DNA of 64,000 nucleotides, taken from contig CAZHNS010000003.1 in the NCBI GenBank assembly GCA_964534175.1, forward strand, positions 63,939 through 127,938, read 5' to 3'. Position numbers and translations under genes: made by a program. This document shows positions 1,189 to 45,016 of this stretch, piece by piece. The stretch's first letter is position 1, and each line of letters starts with the position of its first letter. The notes beneath the pieces were generated by a model that saw nothing but the letters and a program-made list of their open reading frames with translations, was not told the origin of the DNA and did not search any database. The DNA is from an uncultured bacterium (GTDB taxonomy: Bacteria > Hydrothermota > UBA3072).

Positions 1189-3372
1189 ATGAAAATATTT
1201 ATACGTAATCTTTGTTTAGGTTTTGTCTTAGTTTTATTGTTATTTAGTTCTTTTAATATCTTTAGTTGGCCTAATATTCCTAAAATTCCCGAAGTTAAGG
1301 GTATAACGGATAAAATTGCTGATAAACTTCCAGGGTTGGACAAAATATTAAAAAGTGATCCTCCGGTAACAACAAATCTAAAGGATGCAATAACTGAAGT
1401 ATCCATACTGGATGATTATGAGCCTGCTTCACTGGATTTTTTATGGATGGGAGACCTGCCCAGAAGTAAGAAAGGTGCTTTTAAACTTGAGCGTCCAGGA
1501 TTATTCGAGTTCACGGCGCAGAGTTACTGCCTTAAAGCTGGAACATATTCTCCCGGGCAGGGTAATGGTTATCTTTATGCTCCGCTTAAAGGTCCTCAGG
1601 GTGATATTGTAGGAAATGTTCTGAGGAATTCATATGAACATCCGGAAATAGAGCAAAGGAAGGTTCAGGTTTTACTGTGGGCGATTATTGCTCGTACTAA
1701 ACTTACGGATATGTCGACAGAGAATCAGTTGACTGCTTCGAAACTATTGACGCCAGAAGAAATGTTTGAACTCAACGGAGGCGCGCTTGGGCTTGTTCCT
1801 GAAGATATGAAAGAAGAAGCATTTGGTAAAGTTCCGGAAGAGGTGAGGACGGTTCTCGAAGCGGAAGCAAAATTACGTGAAAAACTTACTTCTGTTGAAT
1901 CAAAATATGAGGATCTTGAACGCATCGCCGTTTTGACTGGAAAGGTCCCGATGGGCAAAGACAGTAGGGCAGTGCCTTCCGGAAGATGGTCCTATCATGG
2001 GGACGGATACTTTATAAGGTTCTTTCCTGCTGGGTATTCGCAGGATAAAATTCAGATTTCTATTGCTCCTAAAATTACAATTAAAAAAGATAGCAAAGGT
2101 AGAATAATTTCTCTTTCGGATGATGATGGAAATCTGATTGAAGTCGAATACGATGAAGCAAGTTCTATGAATGTAAATAAAGATTCGAAAGTGAAAGCTT
2201 ACGCTTTTAAAAAAGTCCATTTCGTTAAAATGCTCACCGTTCCACCGGAGATGGTTTTAGACCTTGAAGCCGATTGGACAGGAAAAGGATGGGTTTTTAA
2301 AGGGGAACCTTCAGGTAAGGGTTCGCCTTCAACTACGACAAAATTTACTGGTACTTCAAAACGTTATAAAGAAGCATCGGGATATAGAGAAGAGTTAAAG
2401 AATCTGGATAAGGTTTTGAAACTGAAAGGTGGCGTAGAAGATTTAATGAATCTTGTCCATTTTAAAATGGCAATAAAAGATTTAGTTGTTAATAATTCCG
2501 CCAGTAATCGAATTTGGGCAAAAGGACATGCCGATCTGGCAAATGAAGCAATTCAGTATCTTATAACTGAAAAAGAAGGTAGTTACGTATGGGCTTTTGC
2601 CGATTACGATAATTACTATGGAAAGGGGCTAAGAGAGACATTCTTTTCTATATTGAAGTCTTTTATTTCTTTGCCTGTTTATGCTGATGCGGATAAGATA
2701 CCCTGGTTCAACCCAGGTGATAATGTCGGGACACCGGGCAATACTTCGAGGCAGCGAATTGGTAATTCCGGACGTCCTGCATTAAGTGATGAGGAGAAGC
2801 AAAAAGCATGTGACAAGTTGAATGAGGAAATACAAAACGAACAGACTATTTTAGATGCATATTCTGATAAAGGTTTACTCGATGCGGCTAAAGCCAATGG
2901 ATATGATGGTTATGAGTACAATAACTGTGTTAAAAATTTTCTTGAAAAAACTTTTGGTGATGAGCAATTTACTCCTTTCGAGGATTTGAGCCCGAGCGAA
3001 CAGTCAGATGTACTTAAACAACCTTCAGGAGCTGATTCCGGTCCGAATTTTGATGCTCCCATGCACACAACTCCTGACTGCAGAATTGTAGAAAACTGGA
3101 CCACTCAGGACTATATAGATAAATTCGGAGAGACGGCTGGTAAGGCCCTGCAGCATGCTCACCGGGCACATGAAGGTTCACATCAAAAAACATGTAAGGA
3201 TAAAACCAATTATCATGATGTGCCTCCCGGACAGGGATCTGGTTGGCCGATCGACCCGGATGGATATGATGATTATATGAAAGATCCTGACAATTATAGT
3301 AAAGATGAACAGGAAGCATATAAGGCAGGTATTGCTGACAAGGAAAAATCCCTGGCGGATTTAGGATGCTGA
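1189..3372 (+). CDS. Large secreted hypothetical protein (signal peptide; Cys/His/Asp-rich C-terminal region)
   Basis: 727-aa ORF, N-terminal hydrophobic signal peptide after MKIFIRNL, strong RBS AAAGGAG; no family recognised. Confidence 0.55.
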   Translation: MKIFIRNLCLGFVLVLLLFSSFNIFSWPNIPKIPEVKGITDKIADKLPGLDKILKSDPPVTTNLKDAITEVSILDDYEPASLDFLWMGDLPRSKKGAFKLERPGLFEFTAQSYCLKAGTYSPGQGNGYLYAPLKGPQGDIVGNVLRNSYEHPEIEQRKVQVLLWAIIARTKLTDMSTENQLTASKLLTPEEMFELNGGALGLVPEDMKEEAFGKVPEEVRTVLEAEAKLREKLTSVESKYEDLERIAVLTGKVPMGKDSRAVPSGRWSYHGDGYFIRFFPAGYSQDKIQISIAPKITIKKDSKGRIISLSDDDGNLIEVEYDEASSMNVNKDSKVKAYAFKKVHFVKMLTVPPEMVLDLEADWTGKGWVFKGEPSGKGSPSTTTKFTGTSKRYKEASGYREELKNLDKVLKLKGGVEDLMNLVHFKMAIKDLVVNNSASNRIWAKGHADLANEAIQYLITEKEGSYVWAFADYDNYYGKGLRETFFSILKSFISLPVYADADKIPWFNPGDNVGTPGNTSRQRIGNSGRPALSDEEKQKACDKLNEEIQNEQTILDAYSDKGLLDAAKANGYDGYEYNNCVKNFLEKTFGDEQFTPFEDLSPSEQSDVLKQPSGADSGPNFDAPMHTTPDCRIVENWTTQDYIDKFGETAGKALQHAHRAHEGSHQKTCKDKTNYHDVPPGQGSGWPIDPDGYDDYMKDPDNYSKDEQEAYKAGIADKEKSLADLGC

Positions 3373-3466: not shown

Positions 3467-4123
3467 ATGGGCGATTATACGAATGAGATGAGAGAGTATT
3501 GGAATAAGAGATTTTCCGAGGGTGCTGAAATCTGGGGTGTTAAACCGAGTAAGACCGCTCACTATGCCCTTAAATTATTTAAAAGTCTTAATGTAAGATC
3601 GGTGATTGTTCCGGGTTCGGGATATGGGAGAAATACAAAATTATTTGGGGAAGCGGGATTTAAGGTTGTAGGAGTAGAAATATCAGATAACGCAGTTAAA
3701 CGGGCGCGAAAATTTGACACGAAAAGTAAATTTTATCGTAGAACGGCACTTGAAATAGATTCATTAGTCGAAAAATTTGACGCCATATACTGTTTCAATA
3801 TGCTGCATCTTTTTAAAGAGAAAGAAAGATTACTATTTATAGATAAATGCAATGAAATATTAAATGATCATGGATTTACTTTTTTTGTGATGTTTTCAGA
3901 TAAGGAAGAGAGTTTTGGCAAAGGCAAGAAAATTGAGAAAAATACTTTTGAAAGTAAACCAGGAAGAATAGCACATTATTTTACCAGGGAAGACTTATTG
4001 GCTCATTTTAAGAATTTTGACGTTATTGAGATAGGGAAGATGACCGACGAGGAAAACCATGGTGAGGTAGGTAAACATATACATCGGTTAAGATATGTTT
4101 TTTGTTCAAAGCGGGATTACTGA
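3467..4123 (+). CDS. Class I SAM-dependent methyltransferase
   Basis: Motif I-like VIVPGSGYGRN and downstream acidic/aromatic motifs typical of Rossmann-fold methyltransferases. Confidence 0.55.
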   Translation: MGDYTNEMREYWNKRFSEGAEIWGVKPSKTAHYALKLFKSLNVRSVIVPGSGYGRNTKLFGEAGFKVVGVEISDNAVKRARKFDTKSKFYRRTALEIDSLVEKFDAIYCFNMLHLFKEKERLLFIDKCNEILNDHGFTFFVMFSDKEESFGKGKKIEKNTFESKPGRIAHYFTREDLLAHFKNFDVIEIGKMTDEENHGEVGKHIHRLRYVFCSKRDY

Positions 4124-4161
4124 TTTTTTGAGAACAGGGTACCAGTATTTTACTGCTTCTA

Positions 4162-4560
4162 CTAGGAGCCCCCGATAAGTTTTTTGATTTCTTTTAATAA
4201 GTCTTTAGCTTCGATAGGCTTTTCCATAAAAACGTTTACAGGCATATATTCCATGTCTTCATTCTGTCCAAGGTGGAATTTGGCCATTTCTGAGTCCTGA
4301 TTTACAGCGGTTATCATGATAATAGGAATTTCCTTTAACTTATCGTCAGACCTAATTTTTTCGCTCACCCATATACCGTCGGTCTTTGTTTTCATCATAA
4401 TATCCAACAATATAATATGGGGAGTTTTCTTTTTAACTTGTTTGAATGCTTCTTCACCGTTTCTGGCAGTCCGAGTCTCATAACCATTACCTTGCAATAT
4501 TATTTCTATCGTTTCTACGAAATCGGGGTCATCATCCACAATAAGTATTTCTTTTGACAT
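4162..4560 (-). CDS. Response regulator, stand-alone receiver (CheY-like) domain
   Basis: ILIVDDDPDFVETIEIIL...LLDIMM phospho-acceptor Asp context; 132 aa single domain; start overlaps upstream kinase stop (operon). Confidence 0.75.
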   Translation of the reverse strand: MSKEILIVDDDPDFVETIEIILQGNGYETRTARNGEEAFKQVKKKTPHIILLDIMMKTKTDGIWVSEKIRSDDKLKEIPIIMITAVNQDSEMAKFHLGQNEDMEYMPVNVFMEKPIEAKDLLKEIKKLIGGS

Positions 4561-5489
4561 TATTTCTCCTTTTTTTGAATTACGGGAAAGCTCACTTCTA
4601 CTGTAGTTCCTTTATTTAAATTACTTTTCACTTTTATGGTCCCACCATGAGCATCGATTATTCTTTTGACGAGAGAAAGTCCGAGCCCCATACCTTCCTT
4701 TTTATGTTCGGGACGCGCGTTTTCGCCACGGAAGAAGATATTAAATATCATTGGTAGTTCTTTTTTCTTTATACCTATACCCTGGTCTTTCACTCGTAGC
4801 AATAAAGAGTTGTTTTTTTTGTTTTCAGTTATCTTCACCTGATTTCCCGGGTTACTGTATTTGATTGCGTTATGAATTATATTTACAAAAGCTCTTCTTA
4901 AGAGTTCCGGATTCCCATAAATGGGAGGTATATCATCGGAGATATCCCAGTTCATTTTAATATTGTTTTCAGCTGCGAATGAATCCATTTCTTCGTTCAG
5001 AGAAGATAGTAATTCTCCCATGTTGATTTTTTCTATTTCTATTTCACCTGTTCCTTCTTCGAGGTGAGAAAACATTAACAGATCGTTCAAAAGTTTTATA
5101 ACGTCGTTTATCCTTACTTTTGCTCTGTTGAGAAGTTCTTTTTGTTTTTTAACATCTTTTTCGAGGTAACCATCCAGTATTACGTTTAAAATATTATAAA
5201 CTGAAGCCAGTGGTGCCTTTAATTCATGTGATACTTCATAAGTGAATCTGGTTTTGGCTTTTGTTAGCTCGACGGTTTTCGCGTAATGTTCGCTGCACGC
5301 AGCCTTGGCTTCCTTGGAATGTTTTCTAATGCCTTTTAGATTTTTAATTAAGGATGTTATGTCGGATTCAAGCTTCCCATGCCAGTCCCTGATTCTATCA
5401 AGGTGGCATTCCGGATCGTTAATATTACATATTTTAGGTTCCATGCTCTTTTCTCTCTTTAATATTAGGTAAATTAAGAAAAAATGCAA
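4560..5489 (-). CDS. Cytoplasmic sensor histidine kinase (HisKA + HATPase_c), Cys-containing N-terminal region
   Basis: H-box SHELKAPL, N-box IIHNAIKYS, G-boxes DQGIGI / GMGLGLSLV; no TM segment. Confidence 0.75.
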   Translation of the reverse strand: MHFFLIYLILKREKSMEPKICNINDPECHLDRIRDWHGKLESDITSLIKNLKGIRKHSKEAKAACSEHYAKTVELTKAKTRFTYEVSHELKAPLASVYNILNVILDGYLEKDVKKQKELLNRAKVRINDVIKLLNDLLMFSHLEEGTGEIEIEKINMGELLSSLNEEMDSFAAENNIKMNWDISDDIPPIYGNPELLRRAFVNIIHNAIKYSNPGNQVKITENKKNNSLLLRVKDQGIGIKKKELPMIFNIFFRGENARPEHKKEGMGLGLSLVKRIIDAHGGTIKVKSNLNKGTTVEVSFPVIQKKEK

Positions 5490-5547
5490 GCGTGTTCAGA
5501 GTAACCCAAAACTCTATTTTCCGCTCCAATATTACTTATTTAGCTGT

Positions 5548-5567
5548 AATGTGATTTTTTTCACAAC
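5548..5567 (+). promoter_or_regulatory. Rex-type operator (TGTGA-N6-TCACA) abutting the -35 box of the Ehr-like operon promoter
   Basis: aaTGTGAttttttTCACAAc at 5548-5567; TTGACA at 5568-5573 then 17-nt spacer and TATTAA; rex gene encoded at operon end; a TTGTGAA half-site also at 5602-5608. Confidence 0.4.
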
Positions 5568-5671
5568 TTGACAAACTTCTAAATTATTATTATTAAACTT
5601 TGTGAATTAAATATTTAAGTTAATTAATTCTTTTTTCATTTAGATAAAGAGTTGAAGTAACGGAGGGTTAA

Positions 5672-6196
5672 TTGTATAAAAATGAGGGTTTTACTGTAAA
5701 AGAAAGAATAAAAAGTTTCTGCTGGTTGTTTTTCTTCCTTGTTATCCTCTGGTTACTGCTTACCTCGACTTTTAATTCTCAGGAATTAATAGTTGGTGTT
5801 TTTGTTTGTTCTGTAATTGCTCTTGTAACTTATAAATTTTATATTAAATTAGGTTTTCCTTCTGTAAGCCTTAAGAAGTTTTACTTTTCTCTTGTTTATA
5901 TATTAGTTCTTTTTTTTGAGATATTGAAAGCCAATATAGATGTAGCCCTGCGAGTTATCCGTCCCTCCCTGCCAATAAATCCCGGTGTAATAATTATAAA
6001 GACAGGCCTTAGATCAGATATCGCAAAAACAATTCTGGCTAATTCCATAACTCTAACGCCCGGTACATTTACTCTGGATATTCAAGGAAATAAATTACTA
6101 ATTCACTGGATAGATGTAGAAGCGACTGATATTGATGCCGCGACTAATATTATAGGCGAAAGATTCGAAAAATATTTGAGGGTTATATTCCAATGA
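5672..6196 (+). CDS. Mrp/Mnh antiporter subunit E-like (MbhA-like)
   Basis: MrpE-type membrane N-terminus and LTPGT motif; TTG start with GGAGGG RBS; first gene of 13-gene operon. Confidence 0.65.
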   Translation: MYKNEGFTVKERIKSFCWLFFFLVILWLLLTSTFNSQELIVGVFVCSVIALVTYKFYIKLGFPSVSLKKFYFSLVYILVLFFEILKANIDVALRVIRPSLPINPGVIIIKTGLRSDIAKTILANSITLTPGTFTLDIQGNKLLIHWIDVEATDIDAATNIIGERFEKYLRVIFQ

Positions 6197-6447
6197 TTGC
6201 AACAATTTATTTTGTAGTTATAGGCTTAGGGGTTGTCTTATGTTTGCTCAGGATGATTAAAGGTCCTACTGCTCCTGATCGTGCTGTCGCGCTGGATACA
6301 GCGGTGACAGTCACAGTCGCGTTGTTGGTCCTTATTGGTCTTGTCCTCCGAAGAAGAATATATCTTGATGTTTCATTGGTATATGCTGTTCTAACCTTTA
6401 TAGGTTCAGTTGCAATAGCAAGATATCTTGAGGGAGGAATCGAATGA
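6193..6447 (+). CDS. Mrp/Mnh antiporter subunit F-like
   Basis: 84 aa, 3 TM, MrpF/PhaF-like pattern (LLRMIKGPTAPDRAVALD); overlaps neighbours by 4 nt. Confidence 0.65.
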   Translation: MIATIYFVVIGLGVVLCLLRMIKGPTAPDRAVALDTAVTVTVALLVLIGLVLRRRIYLDVSLVYAVLTFIGSVAIARYLEGGIE

Positions 6448-6782
6448 TCTGGGGCTGGTGGGTTACGGGGTTTGGTGTAATATTTTTGTTCCTGGGGAGC
6501 CTCGGCGTATATAGGATGCCTGACGTATACAATAGATTGCAGGCGGGAACAAAATGTACGACACTTGGCGCTTTCTGTACCATTATTGGTGTTGGAATAA
6601 TAGAGCCTTCCTGGTTCTGGACAACTTTTATAATCGCGGTATTTGTATTATTGACTAACCCAATATCGAGTCATGCACTTGGAAGAGCGTCCTGTATTTC
6701 AAAAGTCAAACTCTGTAAAAAAACAAAGGTTGATCAATCGGAAGGTTTTTGTAGCGAAGGGGATGATGAAGATGATTCTTGA
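6444..6782 (+). CDS. Mrp/Mnh antiporter subunit G-like
   Basis: MnhG-like N-terminus (FLFLGSLGVYRMPDVYNRLQAGTK...); translational coupling. Confidence 0.65.
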   Translation: MIWGWWVTGFGVIFLFLGSLGVYRMPDVYNRLQAGTKCTTLGAFCTIIGVGIIEPSWFWTTFIIAVFVLLTNPISSHALGRASCISKVKLCKKTKVDQSEGFCSEGDDEDDS

Positions 6783-7017
6783 AGTAATCCTGGTTTTCGT
6801 AATGCTTGTGGGTGCCGTTGCTGCCGGTTTTTTTAAAGATTTGTTAAACGCGGTAATCGCTGCCGGCTTTGTTAGTTTTATTGCGGCGATACTCTTCTAT
6901 TTTCTTCATGCTCCCGATGTAGCTATGGCTGAAGCTTCTATTGGTGCTGCCTTAACTGTAGCAATTTTCATAATAGCTATTAAGAAAACAAAAAGATTCG
7001 AGGAAGATGATGCGTAA
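6763..7017 (+). CDS. MnhB-domain small membrane subunit (MbhD-like); start taken at internal ATG 6763 rather than ORF-track 6673
   Basis: ORF 6673-7017 overlaps MrpG-like gene for 110 nt; ATGATGAAGATG at 6763 gives 84-aa 3-TM protein matching MnhB-like DUF4040 proteins of Mbh/Mbx clusters. Confidence 0.5.
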   Translation: MMKMILEVILVFVMLVGAVAAGFFKDLLNAVIAAGFVSFIAAILFYFLHAPDVAMAEASIGAALTVAIFIIAIKKTKRFEEDDA

Positions 7018-7693
7018 GATAATTAGTTTTATTTTAATAACAATAATAGCAGCAGGTATCTTTTTCTCACTGGAGGAAGTACCTTTTGGAGCCACGAAAA
7101 GCAGAGTGAGAGAGTATTATCTTGATAACGGTATAAAACAAACAGGAGCTACAAATATAGTGACATCTGTGGTGGTTAATTATCGTGGTTTTGATACTCT
7201 CGGAGAAGTAACTGTACTGTTCCTCGCGAGTATTGGTCTTTCCGCGGTTCTTTACAGAAAAAAAGAAGAGAGAGGAAAAAAGAGAAGAGAGAGCAGTTTG
7301 ATTTTATATACCGGCTGCAGGTTTTTGTTTCCTCTTATTCTCCTTTTCGGTTCATACATATTTATTCATGGCCATTTGACTCCCGGAGGAGGTTTTCAGG
7401 GAGGAGCTATCATAGCATCCGGGTTTTTGCTAACCATGCTTGGTTGTTGGGGATGGGAAGGAATTAACAGGAACAGATTTAAGATAACAGAATCTCTCTC
7501 GGGTCTTGCCTTTGTTGTTATAGGTCTTCTTGGATTACTTTACGGAGGGTATTTCCTTTTTAATTATCTGCCCAAAGGAATACCTAATCAGCTTTTTAGC
7601 GCCGGAATTATTCCTCTTGTGTATATTGCCATAGGATTCAAAGTGGGTTCGGAGATTGCGGGTATAATAAATGATATGGTGAGGAGCGGGTAA
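7007..7693 (+). CDS. Mrp/Mnh antiporter subunit B-like (MbhE/F-like)
   Basis: MnhB-domain pattern (GATNIVTSVVVNYRGFDTLGEVTVLF); multi-TM. Confidence 0.6.
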   Translation: MMRKIISFILITIIAAGIFFSLEEVPFGATKSRVREYYLDNGIKQTGATNIVTSVVVNYRGFDTLGEVTVLFLASIGLSAVLYRKKEERGKKRRESSLILYTGCRFLFPLILLFGSYIFIHGHLTPGGGFQGGAIIASGFLLTMLGCWGWEGINRNRFKITESLSGLAFVVIGLLGLLYGGYFLFNYLPKGIPNQLFSAGIIPLVYIAIGFKVGSEIAGIINDMVRSG

Positions 7694-8052
7694 TGGAATT
7701 CATAGAAAATTATCTGTATTATATCGCATCCTTTGGTTTAATCCTTATAGGTCTTTATATAATGCTTATCAAGAAAAATTTGATAAAAATTATTATAGGT
7801 CTTTCAATTATAGATACGGGAGTAAATATTTTATTAATTACTATGGGTTATTTAAAAGAAGGAACCGCTCCTATTTTCTCACGTGAGGGTTTACTGCCTT
7901 CAAGGATGGTAGATCCCGTGCCACAGGCACTGGTTCTGACTGCTATTGTGATAGGAGTTGCAATTCTTGCGCTTGCATTGACTCTGGCGGTAGTCCTTTA
8001 CCGTCATTACGGAACTCTCAATGTTAGAAAAATAAGGAATCTTAAATGGTAA
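7693..8052 (+). CDS. Mrp subunit C / NuoK-like small membrane subunit
   Basis: 119 aa, 3 TM; NuoK/MrpC-like fold; coupled ATG overlapping previous stop. Confidence 0.65.
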   Translation: MEFIENYLYYIASFGLILIGLYIMLIKKNLIKIIIGLSIIDTGVNILLITMGYLKEGTAPIFSREGLLPSRMVDPVPQALVLTAIVIGVAILALALTLAVVLYRHYGTLNVRKIRNLKW

Positions 8053-9524
8053 ATCCTGTTTTACTTATAATTATTCCTTTAGCCGGAGCTTTTGCTATAC
8101 CGTTATTTGGTTTTATTTCCAAACACATATCAAAATATATTTCTTTAATTTCTACTCTGGTAATGGCTGTAATTGTGGGTTTTTTAGTTCCGCAAGTTAT
8201 AAACAATCCCATAATTGTTTTGATTGGAGGTTTTAAGCCACCTTTTGGTATCAACCTTGTTGTAAGCCCCTTTTCTCTGTTTTTCGCGGGTGTTATAAGC
8301 TTGCTTGGTTTTCTTGTGTCCATTTATGCTATAAAATATATCGATGATGGAGATATCGAAAAGTATCACCTTTTATTTCTGCTTTTCATAACAGGAGCCA
8401 CAGGAGTTGTCCTTACAGGTGACATATTTAACTTATTTGTTTTCTTTGAGATACTCTGTATTTCTTCCTACGCTCTGGTTGCTTATAACAGGGATAGGGA
8501 TGGAGTGGAAGCCGGTATAAAATACCTCATTCAGGGTTCTGTGGGTTCGTCTTTTATTCTTATTGGAATAGCCCTAATTTATGGACTTTGCGGCTCATTG
8601 AATATGGCAGATATAGCAAGTCAAATTCATTCCGTAAATTCCCCCTTATTATCTCTTGCGCTGTTTCTTTTTCTTACAGGTTTTGGAATCGAAGGAGCTA
8701 TATTTCCACTGAATGCCTGGTTACCCGATGCTCACGCGAGTGCTCCCTCGACTATAAGCGCTGTACTTTCCGGTTTTGCAATCGAAGTAGGAGTATATGC
8801 AGTCGTGCGGTTTGTCTGGACCATATTCGGAGCGTTAAGTATTCTTCATTTTCTTGCAGGACTTGGAGTTCTGACACTGCTTGTTGGTGAACTAGCAGCT
8901 TTCAGGCAAAATCGTATTAAGCGCATGCTTGCTTATTCATCAATAGGGCAGATAGGTCTTATTGTTTTTGCTTTTGGGATAGCTTCTACTGCAGGAGTTA
9001 AAGGAGCTTTATTACAAATTGCATCTCATGCAATGGCAAAAGCTTTGCTCTTTTTGGCTGCAGGTTATATGATATATAGAGCGGGATCTAAGGATATTTC
9101 TTCGCTGGAAGGAATGGGGAGAAGAATGCCTTTTACTTCTTTAGCTTTCACGGTAGGAGCTTTTTCGCTTGTGGGTTTTCCGCCTTTTGTAGGGTTCTCC
9201 AGTAAGTTTTTAGTAATAAAAGCTGCATTGGCTGAAGGACAGCTTATATTTACCATTCTTATCGGGTTTGTTTTATTAGGCACAATAATCGAAGGATCTT
9301 ATTTCCTAAAAGTAATTCAAACAATTTATTTTAAAGGGGGAGAAGTTAATTCTAATAAAAGAATAGAAGCTCCTATCTGTGCTTTGATTCCCATGGTTAT
9401 TTTGCTTATGCTAATCGTAGTTGTAGGGGTATATCCAGGCTTAATAAATAGCGTTTTAGACTCGGCAGCTTCAGGGTTCCTGGATAGAATGCAGTATATT
9501 AAGACCGTATTGGTAGGAATATAA
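8046..9524 (+). CDS. MrpD/NuoM/NuoN-family proton-translocating antiporter-like subunit
   Basis: 492 aa, about 14 TM; conserved WLPDAHA motif region (AWLPDAHASAPSTISA). Confidence 0.75.
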   Translation: MVNPVLLIIIPLAGAFAIPLFGFISKHISKYISLISTLVMAVIVGFLVPQVINNPIIVLIGGFKPPFGINLVVSPFSLFFAGVISLLGFLVSIYAIKYIDDGDIEKYHLLFLLFITGATGVVLTGDIFNLFVFFEILCISSYALVAYNRDRDGVEAGIKYLIQGSVGSSFILIGIALIYGLCGSLNMADIASQIHSVNSPLLSLALFLFLTGFGIEGAIFPLNAWLPDAHASAPSTISAVLSGFAIEVGVYAVVRFVWTIFGALSILHFLAGLGVLTLLVGELAAFRQNRIKRMLAYSSIGQIGLIVFAFGIASTAGVKGALLQIASHAMAKALLFLAAGYMIYRAGSKDISSLEGMGRRMPFTSLAFTVGAFSLVGFPPFVGFSSKFLVIKAALAEGQLIFTILIGFVLLGTIIEGSYFLKVIQTIYFKGGEVNSNKRIEAPICALIPMVILLMLIVVVGVYPGLINSVLDSAASGFLDRMQYIKTVLVGI

Positions 9525-9536
9525 AGGAGTTAAGAG

Positions 9537-11390
9537 ATGCTTTTAGAGGTACTGCTTATAGTCGCATTTGGGGGAGCGTTTCTGACCTATCTCCTTGGGA
9601 AAATTTCTTCCAGATTACGCGATGTATTTGCAGTTCTTGTCTCTTTAGCTTTGGTAGTTATTACCTGTTTGCTTTACAACAAGCAACAGCAAATAGTTTA
9701 CTTTGCATTCTTCGACAACCCTCTTATTCTTAGATCGAATATGCTTTCCTGGTTTTTCGGTATTACAATCGTAGGGATTGGTTTTCTGTCGGTAATTTAT
9801 TCTTTGGGATACATGGGGAAAGAAGAAAAATTGGATTATTATTACTTTATAGTGATACTTATTAATGCATCTATGATTGGAACTGTTTTTAGTGGTGACT
9901 TTATATCATTTTTTATGTTTTGGGAAATAATGAGTTGGAGTACCTTTCTTTTAATAAGCTATAAGGGAGGTAAGGCGTTATCTGCTGGAATGAAGTATAT
10001 AATTATGTCAATTATTGGGTCCATGACTATGTTAATTGCTATTATTAGTTTATATGTTACCTGTGGTACTCTGGAATTTTCTTCCCTGGTTTCTCAAGTG
10101 GAAATTACTTCAATGAGCTACAATTTATTCCTTCTCATTATGTTTGGGGTTGTCTTTACCATTATTAATGCATTCTGGCCACTTCACACCTGGCTTCCTG
10201 ATGCACATGCGGAAGCCGTGAGTCCCTTTTCATCGATTCTTTCAGCAGTACTTGTAAGAAAGGGGTTGTATGGACTCTACCTCGTTATGTATATAATATT
10301 AGGTTTAAATGTCTTGAATAGGTTGACTTTCGGATTTATAAGTTATAATAATGTGTTCTGCTTCATTGGTGCGGTGACTATAGTTTTTGCGGCATTTAGT
10401 GCTTTTCTTCAGGATGATAGTAAGAGAATTCTTGCCTGGAGTACGGTTGGTCAGGGTGGTTATATGATTTTGGGAATTGCGTTTACCACAGCTATTGGGC
10501 TTGCTGGAGGTATGTTCCACGTTTTGAATCATTGTATTTATATAGGTTTACTTTTCTTCGTGGCTGGCGCAGTGGAACGCCAAACCGGAGGGATAAGAGA
10601 TATAAATAAGTTAGGTGGATTAATTAAAAGAATGCCTGTTACTTTTATTGGAGGCGTGGTGGGTATATCTGGTTTAATTGGGCTGCCCTTAACCTGTGGT
10701 TTTGTTTCCAAATGGTTAATATATAAAGCGTTAATTTTGGGAAACCGTCCATTTTTAGCATTTGCTGCATTTATGGGAACCTGGGGAACCATTTTGTACG
10801 GATATAAATTTATTCATAACATTTTCTTAGGTCAGTTGCCGAAAGAATTCGAAGATGTCAAAGAAGTTCCCTTTTCAATGAGATTCCCCATAATTTTATT
10901 GACAATAGCGGTTATTTTAATTGGCGTTCTTCCCGGCATACCCCTTAAAGTCATAAATATTATTAATGTTTCTGCCGGTTTTAAAGCTTTATCGATAAAT
11001 ATATCAGGTGTTATTTCGGAGACGGGTGTGTTAAATACTGTAAATATCTTTACCGCCATTTTAGCGGCTTTGTTAGTAATTTATTTATTATTCCGTACAG
11101 GTGCCGAATCAGAGAGAGTCTCCCAGGAAGATTCTTATGCTGCAGGTTCATATATTCCTGTAGGGAAATATCATTACACTGTTAAATTTTACGATCCGTT
11201 TTCCAGACTTGCGAAACCATGGCTGAAGGATAGGATAGATAATTTTTACGAATGGTTAACCCGCATAGTGGAGAAAATAGCTGAAAGACAAAGGCGTATT
11301 TATACAGGAGATTTAGGTTTTTACCTCGTATACATTGTTCTTTTTCTGGCAGCATTGATTTTTGTGCGGATTATATGTAGGCAATGGTGA
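9537..11390 (+). CDS. MrpA/NuoL-family antiporter-like subunit (second large antiporter subunit, MbxH'-like)
   Basis: 617 aa; TWLPDAHAEAVSPFSSILSAV motif of complex-I subunit L/M/N superfamily; long C-terminal extension. Confidence 0.75.
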   Translation: MLLEVLLIVAFGGAFLTYLLGKISSRLRDVFAVLVSLALVVITCLLYNKQQQIVYFAFFDNPLILRSNMLSWFFGITIVGIGFLSVIYSLGYMGKEEKLDYYYFIVILINASMIGTVFSGDFISFFMFWEIMSWSTFLLISYKGGKALSAGMKYIIMSIIGSMTMLIAIISLYVTCGTLEFSSLVSQVEITSMSYNLFLLIMFGVVFTIINAFWPLHTWLPDAHAEAVSPFSSILSAVLVRKGLYGLYLVMYIILGLNVLNRLTFGFISYNNVFCFIGAVTIVFAAFSAFLQDDSKRILAWSTVGQGGYMILGIAFTTAIGLAGGMFHVLNHCIYIGLLFFVAGAVERQTGGIRDINKLGGLIKRMPVTFIGGVVGISGLIGLPLTCGFVSKWLIYKALILGNRPFLAFAAFMGTWGTILYGYKFIHNIFLGQLPKEFEDVKEVPFSMRFPIILLTIAVILIGVLPGIPLKVINIINVSAGFKALSINISGVISETGVLNTVNIFTAILAALLVIYLLFRTGAESERVSQEDSYAAGSYIPVGKYHYTVKFYDPFSRLAKPWLKDRIDNFYEWLTRIVEKIAERQRRIYTGDLGFYLVYIVLFLAALIFVRIICRQW

Positions 11391-11394
11391 TATT

Positions 11395-12276
11395 ATGAAG
11401 GTTGCTTCGTTTTTCATCTTACCTATTATCGGCTTTACAGTTGGTATATTTTTCATGGGTTTATCCAGAAGAATAATGGCTAGGATACATTGGAGATATG
11501 GTCCTCCTCTGGTTCAACCACTTCTTGATATCATAAAGCTCTTTCACCAAAGAAGTATATCCCATGGAGTTATTTTTGAACTTGGTCTTCTTCTTTCCTT
11601 AGCCGGGAGTATAGTTACTCTTCTTTTTATTCCTATAGGCAATATATGTGCACTCGATATGTCTGGAGGACTTCTGGTAATTTTATATCTTATGCTTTTA
11701 GCGCCTTTCGGCATAGCTTTATCAGGAGGAGAAGCGGCAAATCCAAACGCGAGTATTGGAATTTCCCGAAAGATGCTTTTGGCTTTGAGTTATGAAGTTC
11801 CATTTCTTTTAGCTCTTCTGGCGGTTATGATAGAATATAACACGATCTCTATAGTTGAAATAGTTGAGCTTCAGAGGGCTTCGAGTTGGGGAATTGTTTC
11901 TCTACCTTTATCGGCTATAGCTCTTTTCCTTATTTTACCAGCAATGCTCGGCATAAGACCCTTTGATGTGGTAGGAGCACCGCAGGAGATCGCTTCCGGT
12001 CCAAAAGTTGAATATGGCGGTAAATTTTTAGCATTATATAATATTGAACGAGCTTTTCATGAGTTTATTATTATTGCGCTATTTGTTAATTTGTTCCTTG
12101 GGGGGGCTAATGACCCATTCACTTTCTTTCTAAAGATGTTAATAATATTTGTACCTTTTATCAGTGTTAGTGCTGTTTTTCCAAGATTTAGAATTGAACA
12201 AGCAATTCGCTTCTGCTGGAGATTGCCGACTATTTTGGCTCTTATAGGTTTGATTATTGCAAGTGTGTGGAGGTAA
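11395..12276 (+). CDS. NuoH/HycD/MbhM-like membrane subunit (respiratory complex I subunit 1 family)
   Basis: RIMARIHWRYGPPLVQPLLDIIKLF matches NuoH/HyfC N-terminal signature; ATG 11395 chosen over ORF-track 11362. Confidence 0.7.
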   Translation: MKVASFFILPIIGFTVGIFFMGLSRRIMARIHWRYGPPLVQPLLDIIKLFHQRSISHGVIFELGLLLSLAGSIVTLLFIPIGNICALDMSGGLLVILYLMLLAPFGIALSGGEAANPNASIGISRKMLLALSYEVPFLLALLAVMIEYNTISIVEIVELQRASSWGIVSLPLSAIALFLILPAMLGIRPFDVVGAPQEIASGPKVEYGGKFLALYNIERAFHEFIIIALFVNLFLGGANDPFTFFLKMLIIFVPFISVSAVFPRFRIEQAIRFCWRLPTILALIGLIIASVWR

Positions 12277-12836
12277 AAATGGATAGAAAAGTTGTAAGGA
12301 AATGGTTGAAGGATCCAGAAAAAATGGGTAATAAGTATTCTCTCTGGGCTGTTTATTTCTGCACGGGCTGTGGAATAATTGAAGTTCCTCCGGTTATAAC
12401 TTCTCGCTGGGATGCAGAGAGATTTGGCGTTATTCCTGTAGCGACCCCAAGACAGGCAAATTTGTTTTTAATTACGGGTTATGTCTCTCTGAAAACTTTA
12501 AGAGCTATCATAAGGACCTATGAGCAGATGCGAGAGCCAAAATATACAGTAGGGTTTGGTTCATGTCCGATAAACGGAGGTATGTACTGGGATTCATACA
12601 ACACCATCAAACACCTTGATAAATATATACCGATTGATGGTTGGATTGCCGGTTGTATGCCTAGACCTGAAGCGATATTTATTGCAGTAACGCATCTATG
12701 GACTTTGATCGATAAGGGTATGGCAAACGCATACAAAAAGTACAGAAAACAATATAAATATTATCGAAGGAATCAGGAAATGGCGCTGGGAAAACTCGAA
12801 TGGCCACCCCTGTACCCAATAATTGAAGATGAATAA
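12267..12836 (+). CDS. NuoB/hydrogenase-small-subunit-like [4Fe-4S] subunit (MbhJ-like)
   Basis: Four Cys in CTGCGIIE ... GSCP ... AGCMPRPE arrangement; CxxC (hydrogenase-small-subunit type) rather than CC (NuoB type). Confidence 0.75.
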   Translation: MEVKMDRKVVRKWLKDPEKMGNKYSLWAVYFCTGCGIIEVPPVITSRWDAERFGVIPVATPRQANLFLITGYVSLKTLRAIIRTYEQMREPKYTVGFGSCPINGGMYWDSYNTIKHLDKYIPIDGWIAGCMPRPEAIFIAVTHLWTLIDKGMANAYKKYRKQYKYYRRNQEMALGKLEWPPLYPIIEDE

Positions 12837-13338
12837 AAAGATAATTACAGAATTAGAAACGACGTTTAAAGATATTGAAGTAAATGCTTCTAAGGATACC
12901 AGAATGGAAATTTGTGCTCGTGAAGAGCAGATTTTAGCAATTTTGAGATTCATTGCCAATAAGGGTTATGACCATTTAGCCCTTATCTCCTGTGTGGATT
13001 GGATTGAAGAAGAGGAATTTGAATTGGTTTATATAATTACCTCTTACTCGCAGGAAAATAAGGTATACCTGGATAAGGGAGATATTTTTCTCAAGACAAG
13101 AATTGCAAGAGAAAATCCGGAAGCACGAACGGTAATTCCGATTTTTGCCAATGCTGAGCCGTATGAACGAGAGATTCATGAGCTCTTCGGAGTGAAGTTT
13201 AACGGTCATCCAAGATTAACACATCTTCTGTTAGAAAGAGATTATGAAATACCCCCATTCAGGAAAGATTTTGATACAAGAAAGTATGTTAAGGAAGTTT
13301 TTGATTCAATTCCTGCAATCACAGAGGAGGAAGAGTGA
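12823..13338 (+). CDS. NuoC-like (30-kDa subunit; MbhK-like)
   Basis: EREIHELFGVKFNGHPRL matches NuoC ERE..D(L/M)FG signature. Confidence 0.7.
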   Translation: MKMNKKIITELETTFKDIEVNASKDTRMEICAREEQILAILRFIANKGYDHLALISCVDWIEEEEFELVYIITSYSQENKVYLDKGDIFLKTRIARENPEARTVIPIFANAEPYEREIHELFGVKFNGHPRLTHLLLERDYEIPPFRKDFDTRKYVKEVFDSIPAITEEEE

Positions 13339-14432
13339 GAGAAGTTGAACTCTATTTTGGTCCGCAGCACCTCGGGATGGTAGGAAATTTTAGTATAACG
13401 TTGAAGGTAGAGGGAGATCGTATTTTAGAAGCTACTGCGAATCCGGGATTTCTTCATCGTGGATTTGAGAAGTTGATGGAATGTCGAACCTGGATACAAA
13501 ATTTTCCCATGGTTTGTAGAATAAACGTTGTAGAGCCTGATCATATGGAAATGGTGTATGCAATGGGAGTGGAGAAATTAGCAAATATAGAAGTGCCGGA
13601 AAGGGCGCAGTGGATAAGAAGTATATACCTTGAACTTGCTAGAGTTGGTTCGCATCTTTTTGGTTTGTGGGCTTATTCCAATATGTTGGGTTTTGATACT
13701 GTTGCTCAGTGGGCGATGTACCATAGAGACCTGATTCTGGATCTTTTCGAGGAATTAACAGGCGGGAGGGTATATCATATTTATATCTGGCCTGGTGGGG
13801 TAAGACGTGACTTTCCGAAGGGTTTTACAGATAAAGTCGTAGAGACTTTACATTCAATAGGGAAGTGTGTTCCCGATTATAACGATACATTTTTCAAAAA
13901 TCCGCTGTTTTATGAGAGAACTCATGATATAGGAAAAGTAACGAGAGAAGAAGCAGAGAAATGGGGAGGAGTAGGACAGGTATTAAGAGCTACAGGAAAG
14001 TCCTTTGATATAAGGAAGGTGGAGTCCTATGCAGCTTATGATAAAGTGGATTTTAACATACCCACAAGAGAAGACGGAGACGCGTATTCGAGGATTATGG
14101 TGATAAGAGATGAAATGATAGAATCCGTTCATTTGATTTTTAAACTAATTGAAGGATTACCGAAGGGAGAAGTTTATAACAAAGTACCCAATCCTTTTAA
14201 GTGGAATATCGAAGAAGGTGAATCTTATGTAAGAGTTGAATCTTCGAGAGGAGAATTAGGGCTTTATCTGGTAAGTGATGGCGGAGATAAACCTTATAGA
14301 GTCCATTTTAGAACGCCTTCTTATTCTCATGGTCTAACAATATTAGAGAAAGTCTTAGAAGGCGCTAATATCTCGGATGTAGGAAATATCATGATTAGTA
14401 TGTACGTTGTCGCTCCTGAGATAGATAGATGA
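13335..14432 (+). CDS. NuoD-like / [NiFe]-hydrogenase-large-subunit-like catalytic subunit LACKING both Ni-Fe cysteine motifs
   Basis: GFLHRGFEKLME (NuoD/EchE-type HRG.EK) but no RxCGxCxxxH after it and C-terminus ...YVVAPEIDR has no DPCxxCxxH. Confidence 0.7.
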   Translation: MREVELYFGPQHLGMVGNFSITLKVEGDRILEATANPGFLHRGFEKLMECRTWIQNFPMVCRINVVEPDHMEMVYAMGVEKLANIEVPERAQWIRSIYLELARVGSHLFGLWAYSNMLGFDTVAQWAMYHRDLILDLFEELTGGRVYHIYIWPGGVRRDFPKGFTDKVVETLHSIGKCVPDYNDTFFKNPLFYERTHDIGKVTREEAEKWGGVGQVLRATGKSFDIRKVESYAAYDKVDFNIPTREDGDAYSRIMVIRDEMIESVHLIFKLIEGLPKGEVYNKVPNPFKWNIEEGESYVRVESSRGELGLYLVSDGGDKPYRVHFRTPSYSHGLTILEKVLEGANISDVGNIMISMYVVAPEIDR

Positions 14433-14456
14433 GAAAAATGAGTAATTTAAATTTAG

Positions 14457-16331
14457 GTGAGGTTTACAGAAATGGATAAAAAAACTTCAATTCTGAGTCC
14501 GTTAAAGGCGTTAAAATATCTTTTCAAAAAACCAAAAACTTTAAGATATCCGTTTGAACTTAAAGAGCCTGCAGAAAGATATAGAGGTTTACATCTAAAT
14601 GATTGGGATCAGTGCACGGGTTGCGGAAACTGTGCAGATATTTGTCCTAATGAGGCAATTCTTATGAAAGAAATACCGGAAATCGAGGCAAAAGACGGAG
14701 AGAGAAATGAGCGCCCCGAAATAGATTACGGTAGATGCTGTTTTTGCGGATTATGTGTTGATATTTGTCCGACAGGTTCCATCCGGCTATCCAGAGATTA
14801 TTTTCATATCCATTTTGACCCCAAGACTTTCAAGCTTCTGGCAAAAGATGAAAAAACGGACGGGGAACACTTCCTTCCTGAGGGGAAATATTCTATTCTT
14901 AAAGCATCGCTTGCCCATCGAAGAAAAAATTATGAGGGTTTTAGTTCTGACTTAGAATACGCACTGTTTGACCCTGAAAGAGTACAGATGTCTCAGGCTT
15001 CACCCAAAGAGAGAAAATCCTCTTTTATTGAACAGGTAAAGGGTTTCAGCGCACAGGAGGCTCTAAAAGAAGCGAGTCGATGTTTGGAGTGTAAGTTATG
15101 CGAGGAAGTCTGTCCTGCCGGTATGGATATAGTTGATTATGTACGCAATTTATGGGAAGGTGATTTAGAGGAAGCGGTCAGGGATATTTACAAAACAAAT
15201 CCCTTACCCGGCGTTTGTGGTAGAGTTTGCACGCATAATTGTGAGTCTGCCTGTGTACTTAGTCATCGAGGTGAACCTGTATCTATAAGATGGTTAAAGC
15301 GTTATGTTGTGGATAATCTTTCTCTTTCCGAATATCAAAAGGTGCTTGAAACAGAAAAAATTAAATCTATAGGGAAAAAAGTTGCTATAATTGGCGCGGG
15401 TCCGGGAGGCTTATCGGCTGCTTATTATCTCAGATTGATGGGTTATAAGGTCGTTATCTTTGAGAAGTTGCCCGAACCCGGTGGGATGCTGAGATATGGT
15501 ATTCCTGAATACCGACTTCCCTATGAAGCTTTAAATAAAGATATTGAATATATAAAATCTGTAGGAGTAGATATTAGATGTGATAATACTGTTGGCGAGG
15601 ATATTTCACTTGCTGAACTTCGGGATAATTATGACGCGGTTTTTGTGTCTACTGGTTTTCATGCCGGGCGGAGTACCGGAGTTCCGGGAAGTAAAAACCC
15701 TCACGTTTTTCAGGCAATAGAATTACTCAGAAAGGTGACGATGGGAGAAGAGATTGAAGTTACCGATAAGATTGTGGTAATAGGTGGGGGAGATGTTGCT
15801 ATGGATATTTCGAGAACACTTGCCCGATTGCAGATGAAGAAATTTGGAGCTGTAGATATTACTCTCAGTTGCTTGGAAACGAGGGACATTATGCCCGCTA
15901 CTCCGGAAGAAATAGAGGAAGCTCTTGAAGAAGGCATTAAAATGTATCCGGGATGGGGTCCGGAGAAGATTATTATAGAAAAAGAAAAAGTTAAGGGTAT
16001 AGTTATGAAAAAGTGCCTCAGGGTTTTTGACGAAGAAGGAAAGTTTAATCCTGAATTTGATGATAAGGAGAAAAAGGATTTTGAGTGTTCGATGGTCGTT
16101 GAAGCAATAGGGCAGGCACCTGATTTTACTTTTATATCAGAAGATATAAAAGTAAAACTTAAATATGAGGGAAGAAGGATGAAAGTTAATGAGTATGGTC
16201 AAACTTCATTGCCTTGGTTATTCATCGGAGGAGATATCCTGAGGGGTCCCGATGTAATTAACGCTATCGATACCGGACATAAGGCCGCAAGAGGTATCGA
16301 TAAATTTATCTCCTCCAAAGAGAAAAAATAA
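14457..16331 (+). CDS. Fusion protein: NuoI-type 2x[4Fe-4S] ferredoxin (N-term) + GltD/NfnB/SudA-like FAD/NAD(P)H oxidoreductase (C-term)
   Basis: CTGCGNCADICP and CCFCGLCVDICP (NuoI-like); then CLECKLCEEVCP + CGRVCTHNCESAC (GltD-type Fe-S), GXGXXG FAD site VAIIGAGPGGLSAAYYL and second dinucleotide site VVIGGGDVAMD. Confidence 0.75.
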   Translation: MRFTEMDKKTSILSPLKALKYLFKKPKTLRYPFELKEPAERYRGLHLNDWDQCTGCGNCADICPNEAILMKEIPEIEAKDGERNERPEIDYGRCCFCGLCVDICPTGSIRLSRDYFHIHFDPKTFKLLAKDEKTDGEHFLPEGKYSILKASLAHRRKNYEGFSSDLEYALFDPERVQMSQASPKERKSSFIEQVKGFSAQEALKEASRCLECKLCEEVCPAGMDIVDYVRNLWEGDLEEAVRDIYKTNPLPGVCGRVCTHNCESACVLSHRGEPVSIRWLKRYVVDNLSLSEYQKVLETEKIKSIGKKVAIIGAGPGGLSAAYYLRLMGYKVVIFEKLPEPGGMLRYGIPEYRLPYEALNKDIEYIKSVGVDIRCDNTVGEDISLAELRDNYDAVFVSTGFHAGRSTGVPGSKNPHVFQAIELLRKVTMGEEIEVTDKIVVIGGGDVAMDISRTLARLQMKKFGAVDITLSCLETRDIMPATPEEIEEALEEGIKMYPGWGPEKIIIEKEKVKGIVMKKCLRVFDEEGKFNPEFDDKEKKDFECSMVVEAIGQAPDFTFISEDIKVKLKYEGRRMKVNEYGQTSLPWLFIGGDILRGPDVINAIDTGHKAARGIDKFISSKEKK

Positions 16332-16341
16332 TTTCGAGAGA

Positions 16342-16974
16342 ATGGACAAAGAAGATATCCCAAAAGAGACAATAGAAAGACTTCTATTTTATACAAAGTG
16401 CCTATCGACTTTTAAACAATCAGGCAAGGAACAGTTTTCATCAGCGGATATTGCCAGGAGGTTAAAACTTAAGCCCACATTGGTGAGGAAAGATCTCTCT
16501 TATATTGGACGGATTGGCAGAAGAGGGATTGGCTATAATGTTGAAAGAGTTCTGGACAAGATAAATCGAGTCGTTTATTATGAAAAAGAGCATCAGGTTG
16601 CTCTTATAGGTGTGGGGAATATCGGAAAAGCATTAATAAATTATCCCGGATTTCAAGCACACGGATTGGTTATAAAACTCGCTTTCGAGAAAGACAAGGA
16701 AAAAATCGGTAAGGAAATTTATGGCGTTAAAATTGAAGATATAAAAACACTTAAAAAAAGAGTGGCAGAGGAAGAGATAAAAGTCGGAATTATAGCTGTT
16801 CCTCCTATTCAGATTAAAGAAGTTATTGATATTGTTAAAGACTCAGAAATAAAAGCGATTCTTAATTTTACCTCCACATGTATGATGCCCTATGACGATT
16901 TAAAAGGGAAGTTAAAGATAAAAAATATCGATCTAGCGGTTGAGATGCAAAGATTGGTGTATTATTCATCATAA
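16342..16974 (+). CDS. rex: Redox-sensing transcriptional repressor Rex
   Basis: N-terminal winged-helix IPKETIERLLFYTKCL...RKDLSYIGRIGRRGIGYNV and Rossmann VALIGVGNIGKAL typical of Rex; 10 nt after the NuoI-GltD gene. Confidence 0.8.
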   Translation: MDKEDIPKETIERLLFYTKCLSTFKQSGKEQFSSADIARRLKLKPTLVRKDLSYIGRIGRRGIGYNVERVLDKINRVVYYEKEHQVALIGVGNIGKALINYPGFQAHGLVIKLAFEKDKEKIGKEIYGVKIEDIKTLKKRVAEEEIKVGIIAVPPIQIKEVIDIVKDSEIKAILNFTSTCMMPYDDLKGKLKIKNIDLAVEMQRLVYYSS

Positions 16975-19623: not shown

Positions 19624-20787
19624 TTAAAATGCGTCTTTTATAATTCCTCTTAATTCTTCATCGGTTAAAACTATTGGGTTACCCTGCATACTGTTTGATA
19701 TTTTTGCTTTGCCTATCAATTCTTCGATTTGTTCTTCTTTTAAATCGACTTCTGAAAGATGAGGCATATTTAGTTTTTCGTAGAGTTCATCTGTCCATTG
19801 GATTAAGTCTTTCGGTTTTGCTTTTTCGTTTTTTGTTACTATTCTTGCGATTTTTTCATATTTTTTGAATACTACAGATGAAGGTTTACGTTCCTCGAGG
19901 GCTTTGATATTTGCTTTTATAACATAGGGCAGAAGGATGCCGCAAACTACGCCATGGGGAGCGCCTATCATACCTCCCATTGGTCCTGCGAATCCGTGGA
20001 CTGCTCCGAGTTTCGCGTTCGCGAGGGCTATTCCGCCAAAGAGACTTCCTATGCACATATCTTCCCTTGCTTTTGCTTCGGTAGGATTGTTAAATGCTTT
20101 TAGAAGGGAGCGGCTTATTCTTTTTATTCCTTCCTTGCAGATTGCGTCTGTTAACATATTCGCTTTTATTGAAACATAGGGTTCTATTACCTGCGTGAAA
20201 GCGTCGAGTCCGGTACTTGCCGTTACCTCTTTCGGCATCGAATAGGTTAGTACTGGATCGAGTATAGCAATATCCGGGAGCATAAAAGGACTCCTGAGAC
20301 TAACCTTTACGGAGTGTTCATTTGATTTTATTACTGCGTTTTTAGTCACTTCCGTTCCTGTTCCCGCGGTTGTCGGTACCGCTATAAACGGAATAGTAGG
20401 GTTCTTTATGGGTTTGCCTCTGCCTATTACCTCTAGATAATCAAAGAGATCTCCTCCGTTTGTTACGAGAGCGGATACCGCTTTACCCGTATCTATGGCA
20501 CTCCCTCCTCCTATTCCAATTATTACGTCGGTTTTACTTCGACTGGCTAGTTTTAGACATTCGGTAACAACATTGGTTGTGGGTTCACCGTTTACGGAGA
20601 ACGTTTCGAATTTTATTTTTTTCTTTGTGAAATCGTCGAGTAAAAATTTACACCTGTTTTGATTTTTACCTGTGACGATGAGAGGCTTTTCCCCGAGATT
20701 TAAAGCATTATCCGGGATTTTTTCTGCGGATCCGTCCCCAAAAATTATCCATTTCGCGGTTGCGAATTCAAAGCGAGTTGCGTTCAC
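19624..20787 (-). CDS. Iron-containing (group III) alcohol dehydrogenase
   Basis: [16 protein letters not shown]-binding motif and His-rich metal site (HGVVCG / HGFAGP) of Fe-ADH family. Confidence 0.85.
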
Positions 20788-45012: not shown

Positions 45013-45016
45013 AAAT

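Follow-up and report, generated by a model that had tools for sequence, protein, structure and literature searches.

The transcription unit described here lies in a window of 64,000 nucleotides, the whole stretch of DNA that was analysed, from an uncultured bacterium. Downstream of a short palindrome, 14 open reading frames follow one another on the same strand and either overlap or are separated by gaps of 24 nt or less. Thirteen of these encode the subunits of a membrane complex and the last encodes a Rex protein. On the other side of the palindrome, a histidine kinase and a response regulator are divergently oriented. The features of the locus are as follows.

4162-4560, minus strand: receiver-only response regulator with no output domain, divergent from the operon (Pfam)
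4560-5444, minus strand: histidine kinase, divergent from the operon (Pfam)
5549-5566, no strand assigned: predicted Rex operator ATGTGATTTTTTTCACAA, with cores TGTGA at 5550-5554 and TCACA at 5561-5565
5568-5573, plus strand: candidate -35 element TTGACA, a perfect consensus hexamer within the 29-bp invariant block AATGTGATTTTTTTCACAACTTGACAAAC, its -35 role presumed
5591-5599, plus strand: candidate -10 region, read as TATTAA at 5591-5596 (17-bp spacer) or TAAACT at 5594-5599 (20-bp spacer)
5597-5621, plus strand: conserved element ACTTTGTGAATnnAATATnTAAGTT, invariant or near-invariant in six sequences, downstream of the -10 region
5662-5666 and 5672-5674, plus strand: ribosome-binding site GGAGG and TTG start codon of the first gene (ORF list; conservation)
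5672-16331, plus strand: 13 structural genes of an MBS/MBX-type membrane complex (Pfam)
13335-14432, plus strand: NuoD/MbsL-like L subunit, best solved relative 6u8y_L (P. furiosus MBS)
14457-16331, plus strand: fused NuoI-like and GltD-like NAD(P)-binding flavoprotein, matching NF010590 over its full length
16342-16974, plus strand: rex, the last gene, encoding 210 aa with PF06971 and PF02629 and starting 10 nt after the stop codon of the fusion gene

Other parts of the window carry genes of varied function. A 727-aa ORF at 1189-3372 (+) has no Pfam match at E<=1e-3. The protein encoded at 24359-26989 (-) is secreted, has a C-terminal T9SS sorting domain and matches GH43/DUF3659 weakly; at 36004-37152 (+) lies the gene of a bacterial WD40 beta-propeller protein, and at 61112-63838 (-) that of a sigma-54 activator whose N-terminal part has TPR and GAF domains. 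A McsB-like ATP:guanido phosphotransferase is encoded directly upstream of a ClpC/ClpB-type AAA+ chaperone at 43930-47467 (+), a pairing that resembles the arginine-phosphorylation quality-control pair of Gram-positive bacteria; among the other proteins of this lineage are one with an LptE domain and one with a T9SS sorting tail.

The structural genes combine Mrp-type and Nuo-like modules. The first seven encode, in order, MnhE, MrpF, MnhG, MbhD-like, MnhB/MbhE-like, NuoK-like and first MrpD-like subunits, and these are followed by a second MrpD-like subunit, by NuoH-like, NuoB-like, NuoC-like and NuoD/MbsL-like subunits, and by the fusion protein. This last protein, of 624 aa, joins a NuoI-like 2x[4Fe-4S] domain to a GltD/NfnB-like NAD(P)-binding flavoprotein. 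The L subunit scores 339 bits against 6u8y_L, compared with about 230 bits against complex I and 131 bits against MBH, and it ends in ...APEIDR, with no C-terminal CxxC (NiFe ligands). Because the L subunit is nearest to MbsL and lacks the CxxC, the operon is assigned to an MBS/MBX-type complex and not to a hydrogenase, with a predicted activity. The same Mrp-plus-Nuo-like module content is found in P. furiosus MBS and T. maritima MBX, and the NuoI-like/GltD-like fusion is common to the window operon and to the 'mbx-like operon' with a gltD-like subunit described in Thermotoga and proteobacteria (PMC4758237). The 13-subunit MBX operon of T. maritima is sulfur-induced (PMC9431562). Neither of these reports mentions Rex regulation or a rex gene in the operon, in which respect the window operon is different (PMC9431562, PMC4758237). 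A terminator was sought after rex and none was found (fold z-score -0.28).

The assignment of the last gene as rex, already made in a first-pass annotation of the sequence, is borne out by Pfam, by NCBIfam cut-offs and by full-length matches to solved structures. The protein scores 213.6 against a cut-off of 126 for NF003995, 182 against 177 for NF003989, 165.7 against 130 for NF003994 and 153.5 against 138 for NF003996, and it matches 5zz5 (E 3e-39) and 2vt2 (E 2e-34) over the full length. The NAD(H)-binding Rossmann motif, GxGxxG, reads GVGNIG in the window protein. The nearest structural relative (5zz5 family) is T. maritima Rex, for which a complex with NAD+ and operator is available (7WB3; PMC8836258), and the DNA-contact residues given there were mapped onto the window Rex through an ungapped alignment. 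Ten of the 12 contact residues are identical, namely R12, S33, K43, R48, K49, S52, G58, R60, G61 and Y64, which correspond to R13, S34, K44, R49, K50, S53, G59, R61, G62 and Y65 in the window protein. Included in this set are the base-reading Arg48/Lys49 and the minor-groove Arg60/Gly61, and both half-sites of the palindrome contain the bases that R48/K49 read, which are the two G and the A of TTGTGA. Only E34 and Q46 (T. maritima numbering) differ, and E34 is described as variable (PMC8836258). The window site is less degenerate than the T. maritima TM0201 operator (TTGAGAAATTTATCACAA), and the two Rex proteins are identical in part only. The exact window Rex protein was found on short metagenome contigs only.

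The palindrome itself had been reported in the first-pass annotation as a TGTGA-N6-TCACA element matching the Rex consensus, and it is real. Six T residues at 5555-5560 separate TGTGA from TCACA in a perfect core. Compared with the Rex consensus TTGTGAANNNNTTCACAA, ATGTGATTTTTTTCACAA agrees at 12 of the 14 specified positions and at all 10 core positions; the right half-site is perfect, and the two mismatches fall in the left half, ATGTGAT, where position 1 is A instead of T and position 7 is T instead of A. Within the 64 kb of the window the core palindrome is found a single time; dinucleotide shuffles predict 0.03 occurrences, and a match turned up in 3 of 100 shuffles. It is also the sole 18-mer in the window with two or fewer mismatches to the Rex consensus, and the three 18-mers with three mismatches are AT-rich and at chance level. 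When scored with a position weight matrix built from other lineages only, the palindrome reaches 19.7 bits, within the training range of 15.6-23.4, and the runner-up position in the window, at 51583 within a pseudouridine synthase gene, reaches 10.2 bits. The matrix scan found no second Rex site in the 64-kb window, so a lineage-specific motif is not derivable there from independent targets. Near the Fe-ADH gene at 19624-20787, a typical member of Rex regulons, the matrix gave nothing above 6.3 bits. The operator lies 105 bp upstream of the first gene of the operon and 1 bp upstream of TTGACA. An earlier description of it as overlapping the -35 element is therefore corrected: it abuts TTGACA at 5568-5573, and the two do not overlap, since C5567 separates them.

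TTGACA is a candidate for the -35 element, and its -10 partner is less clear. In the candidate -10 region, TTATTA and AC are invariant among orthologues and there is one A/G change, in L008. A consensus promoter scan made no call at this position because position 6 of the hexamer is not T. The -10 is weak and ambiguous, and the promoter assignment is therefore insecure. The scan instead returned TTCACA-16-AATTAT (5560-5587), which we rejected, since orthologues differ in its -10 (AATGAT, AATTGT) and agree in TTGACA. The conserved element at 5597-5621 probably spans the transcription start. Within it lies a lone TTGTGAA half-site, invariant in all six orthologous promoters; it had been noticed earlier and placed at 5602, and its actual position is 5600-5606. 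As a full Rex site this half-site was rejected, with a matrix score of 1.2 bits. No Rfam family matched in 5300-5900, and a riboswitch or leader RNA account of the conserved island is thus without support. The ribosome-binding site and start codon of the first gene are conserved as GGAGG.TT.ATTG in 6 of 6 orthologues.

Orthologous promoters were compared in six sequences, which are the window, two metagenome-assembled genomes (MAGs; L007 and L008) and three metagenome loci (L106, L114 and L130). The closest relatives in the genome collections are MAGs, whose MrpD-like subunit is 96% identical to that of the window in L007 and 72-73% in L008 and L009; L009 is labelled candidate division WOR-3, a phylum now named Caldifarciminota at NCBI. 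The 29-bp block AATGTGATTTTTTTCACAACTTGACAAAC, comprising operator and -35, is invariant in all six promoters, and its flanks are unalignable. It is followed by a spacer with few substitutions and then by the invariant blocks TTATTA, ACTTTGTGAAT and AATAT.TAAGTT. Relative to L008, the island at 5547-5621 is 95% identical, the adjacent MnhE coding DNA 81% (69% at third codon positions), the remaining leader 58% and the upstream flank about 48%. This contrast with neighbouring DNA indicates that operator and -35 are together under strong purifying selection. The upstream neighbour in L008 is an unrelated P-type ATPase gene and the operator is kept there; because the island persists beside an unrelated neighbour, it is taken to belong to the mbx-like operon.

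The third relative, L009, differs in its regulatory features. The operon is present in this WOR-3 MAG and the operator is absent, and its rex gene (18156-18700) is split into frameshifted fragments. Hdr-like ORFs (CxxCxxCxxxCP) and others on the same strand at 3862-7633 run straight into the mbx-like genes. Co-loss of regulator and operator could account for this arrangement, and an artefact of MAG assembly fits equally.

A wider survey of the genome collections yielded 67 related loci with this operon type, whose depositor labels include Bacteroidales, Pirellulales, Cloacimonadota, Fermentibacteria, Aerophobetes, Eisenbacteria, Omnitrophota, Thermotogae and Clostridia. In 14 of these loci the operon has a linked rex gene, in one of three arrangements: it is the last gene in L008, L009 and L056, the first gene in L022, L030, L033, L034, L039, L046, L052, L054 and L055, and divergent in L012 and L048. 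Ten of the rex genes from linked loci were checked by Pfam and all ten have both Rex domains. The loci were scanned over 911 kb for 18-mers with at most three mismatches to the Rex consensus and at most one in the core. This yielded 34 Rex-type palindromes, 26 of which fall no more than 250 bp ahead of the operon's first gene; the 271-bp upstream windows defined there account for 1.5% of the sequence (binomial P 5e-41). When the upstream windows are compared with other intergenic DNA only, the counts are 26 and 2 sites (P 7e-22). A Rex-type site stands at the operon start in 23 of 51 related loci from several phyla, and in 9 of 9 rex-first and 2 of 2 rex-divergent loci; perfect consensus sites occur in two loci, L022 and L035. 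The motif derived from the related loci has the Rex-specific outer positions TTGTGAA/TTCACAA. Judged from these counts, a Rex-type palindrome is a marker of where this operon type begins in many phyla, and such palindromes occur together with neighbouring rex genes.

Site architecture varies among these loci. Two overlapping Rex-type sites with a 6-bp offset are seen in rex-first loci, for example at L039 5430-5453 (ATGTGAATGTGATCACTATCACAA), and similar overlapping double sites lie at L034 6911, L055 951, L054 6935, L046 1917 and L033 3025; they are absent from the window. A distant WOR-3 locus, L063, carries TTGTGATTTTTTTAACGA at 18123-18140, which scores 13.5 bits and has the same T7 spacer. 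This site is located about 44 bp past the end of the fused subunit gene and not upstream of the operon.

The exact 18-mer was also sought in metagenomes, where ATGTGATTTTTTTCACAA was found at no fewer than 87 loci (at least that number). Most of these matches are in unrelated contexts, and interpretation was confined to those accompanied by rex, MnhE or a second Rex site. On three unrelated contigs (L092, L102 and L152), the identical 18-mer lies 100, 66 and 116 bp, respectively, upstream of a gene with both Rex domains, where about 0.01 such cases would be expected by chance among 84 random matches, assuming roughly one rex per genome of a few Mb. In L084, L099 and L129, a second near-consensus Rex site lies 10-20 bp from the 18-mer. 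Six further contigs (L111, L121, L131, L143, L145 and L160) carry the 18-mer within an identical longer flank, agaacagtgagatta...ttaaaatataccatttttt, which suggests that they derive from one widespread organism or element.

The principal competing reading of the palindrome is that it serves a CRP/FNR-family activator responsive to cyclic nucleotides or redox state and not Rex. The E. coli-type CRP site is TGTGA-N6-TCACA; it shares the 5+5 core and its spacing with the window palindrome, so the core by itself cannot tell CRP from Rex. The two consensus departures of the left half-site, ATGTGAT, make that side CRP-like and appear to count against Rex, and in one related locus (L029) a CRP/FNR-like gene is divergent from the operon. 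The CRP-type core is perfect in the palindrome and the FNR-type core TTGAT-N4-ATCAA is absent from it. In E. coli, CRP sites of class II overlap the -35 (about -41.5) and those of class I are centred at about -61.5, and the centre of the window site, 13 bp upstream of the -35 centre and so probably near -46 relative to the presumed transcription start, would fit neither geometry. Gene neighbourhood and outer positions point to Rex: the family motif has the Rex-specific outer positions, and the exact 18-mer precedes rex genes in unrelated contigs. The first-pass annotation had made its Rex assignment depend on whether the genome encodes a CRP/FNR regulator and has Rex sites of a different look elsewhere. 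ORFs of the window and the 67 loci were searched by phmmer with E. coli CRP and FNR sequences, a search whose sensitivity is limited by the use of single-sequence probes. No cNMP_binding/HTH_Crp gene was found among the window ORFs, and a CRP/FNR-like neighbour was found in 1 of 67 related loci, L029, which lacks a TGTGA/TCACA site, against an adjacent rex in 14. Judged from the window and these related loci, control of the window operon by a CRP/FNR-family protein is highly improbable. The L029 gene, at 6524-7216 (-) in a Mariniphaga-labelled MAG, is the sole CRP/FNR-like gene that the search found in the roughly 975 kb of related loci; with no Rex-type site upstream of its mbx-like operon, this lineage may use an alternative regulator.

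A different possibility is that the site mainly controls the divergent kinase and response regulator pair at 4162-5444 (-), or that it controls both divergent units. The kinase starts about 105 bp from the operator, the pair is kept at a distance of about 103-112 bp in 5 of 6 orthologous loci, and a histidine kinase of C. saccharolyticus is a predicted Rex target (PMC6391272). On the other hand, operator and promoter island are retained in L008, where the kinase is missing, conservation runs from the operator toward the mbx-like operon only and the DNA between operator and kinase is unalignable, and the site in other phyla goes with the operon or rex and not with a kinase. We consider this arrangement unlikely, if slightly less so than a CRP/FNR site. 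It might also be argued that no regulatory protein is involved and that the palindrome either arose by chance in AT-rich intergenic DNA or forms a structure such as a hairpin or bidirectional terminator, given that short palindromes are commoner in DNA of low GC content (37% GC) and that the spacer is a T7 run. Against this, 0.03 such palindromes are expected per window, the site is unchanged between lineages with 81% identity in coding DNA, and the cross-phylum enrichment holds even against other intergenic DNA (P 7e-22). A 5-bp A/T-rich stem with a 6-nt loop is no terminator, and the terminator scan called none there. Conservation and enrichment effectively refute the chance or structural explanation, to which we assign a negligible probability.

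We regard it as very probable, on the combined pattern of motif, conservation and gene linkage, that the palindrome at 5549-5566 is the operator of the Rex protein encoded by the last gene of the same 14-gene unit. At a low NADH/NAD+ ratio, a dimer of Rex in its NAD+ form would bind both half-sites through its winged-helix domains. With 1 bp between operator and -35, the bound dimer would be expected to block access of RNA polymerase to the promoter; a site upstream of the -35, and not over the -35/-10 or the start, is less common for a simple steric repressor. As NADH rises, its binding would reorient the DNA-binding domains and release Rex, allowing transcription of the 14-gene unit, that is, the 13 genes of an ion-translocating complex with a GltD-like NAD(P)(H) module together with rex. 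Since rex lies within the unit, more Rex would then be made and the loop would be negatively autoregulated. From established Rex biochemistry (PMC8836258; PMC6391272) we infer binding, repression as opposed to activation, release by NADH and co-transcription of rex, and likewise the exact -10, the transcription start and the working direction of the complex.

Comparison with known Rex systems shows where this arrangement is conventional and where it departs from precedent. The Rex operators of S. coelicolor (ROP sites) are of the same Gram-positive consensus type. The window site shares with Gram-positive ROP sites an 18-bp inverted repeat, TGTGA/TCACA cores and a 4-bp centre composed of A/T only, as well as a position in the promoter region of an energy-metabolism operon and a cognate Rex with wHTH and Rossmann domains. 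It differs in its left half, ATGTGAT in place of TTGTGAA, and in its host, an uncultured lineage whose nearest named relatives are WOR-3; the S. aureus Rex consensus, for example, is TTGTGAAW4TTCACAA (PMC2883068). In C. bescii, Rex sites confirmed by EMSA precede rex itself, the FeFe hydrogenase and the operon for the membrane-bound Ech [NiFe] hydrogenase (PMC6391272), so that Rex likewise controls a complex-I-related multi-subunit membrane complex and its own gene. There, rex forms its own unit and has a site to itself, whereas in the window, with rex at the end of the target operon, one operator would serve both. The targets also differ, since the window complex is of MBS/MBX type without NiFe ligands and that of C. 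bescii is an Ech hydrogenase.

Rex usually derepresses NADH-consuming functions. If this usual logic applies, the complex may use its GltD-like module to oxidise NAD(P)H. The proposal in the literature, that such a complex reduces NAD(P)+ with ferredoxin, runs in the opposite direction to this Rex-based reading, and production of NAD(P)H from ferredoxin would make induction at high NADH counter-intuitive. A wider proposal, tentative and on balance doubtful, is that Rex control, with repeated independent recruitment of rex as last, first or divergent gene, is a hallmark of the bacterial GltD-module MBS/MBX-like complex; it would extend over WOR-3, Fermentibacteria, Aerophobetes, Eisenbacteria and Planctomycetes- and Bacteroidetes-labelled MAGs. 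If it is true, the complex would be an NAD(P)H-oxidising, ion-translocating 'proto-complex I', a role suggested because Rex derepresses upon NADH accumulation. NAD(P)H would then enter at the GltD-like flavoprotein, and electrons would pass along an FeS chain to an acceptor at the MbsL-like site, for example sulfane sulfur.

What is new here is the host lineage and the type of target operon, and what is known is the standard Rex operator and its autoregulatory loop. No link between Rex and MBX or between WOR-3 and Mbx was found in the searchable literature, a body that does not include the regulon study of Ravcheev et al. 2012; a Rex regulon figure of '12 operons, 40 genes' is cited in PMC8836258. 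As the operator is of the textbook Rex type, the finding is mainly a confident regulatory annotation in a lineage without cultured representatives. The connection of Rex sites and rex genes with MBX/MBS-like operons in many candidate phyla provides independent, regulation-based evidence that a biochemically uncharacterised complex is coupled to the NADH/NAD+ pool. Operator, Rex and NADH together offer a testable handle on the function and direction of this complex.
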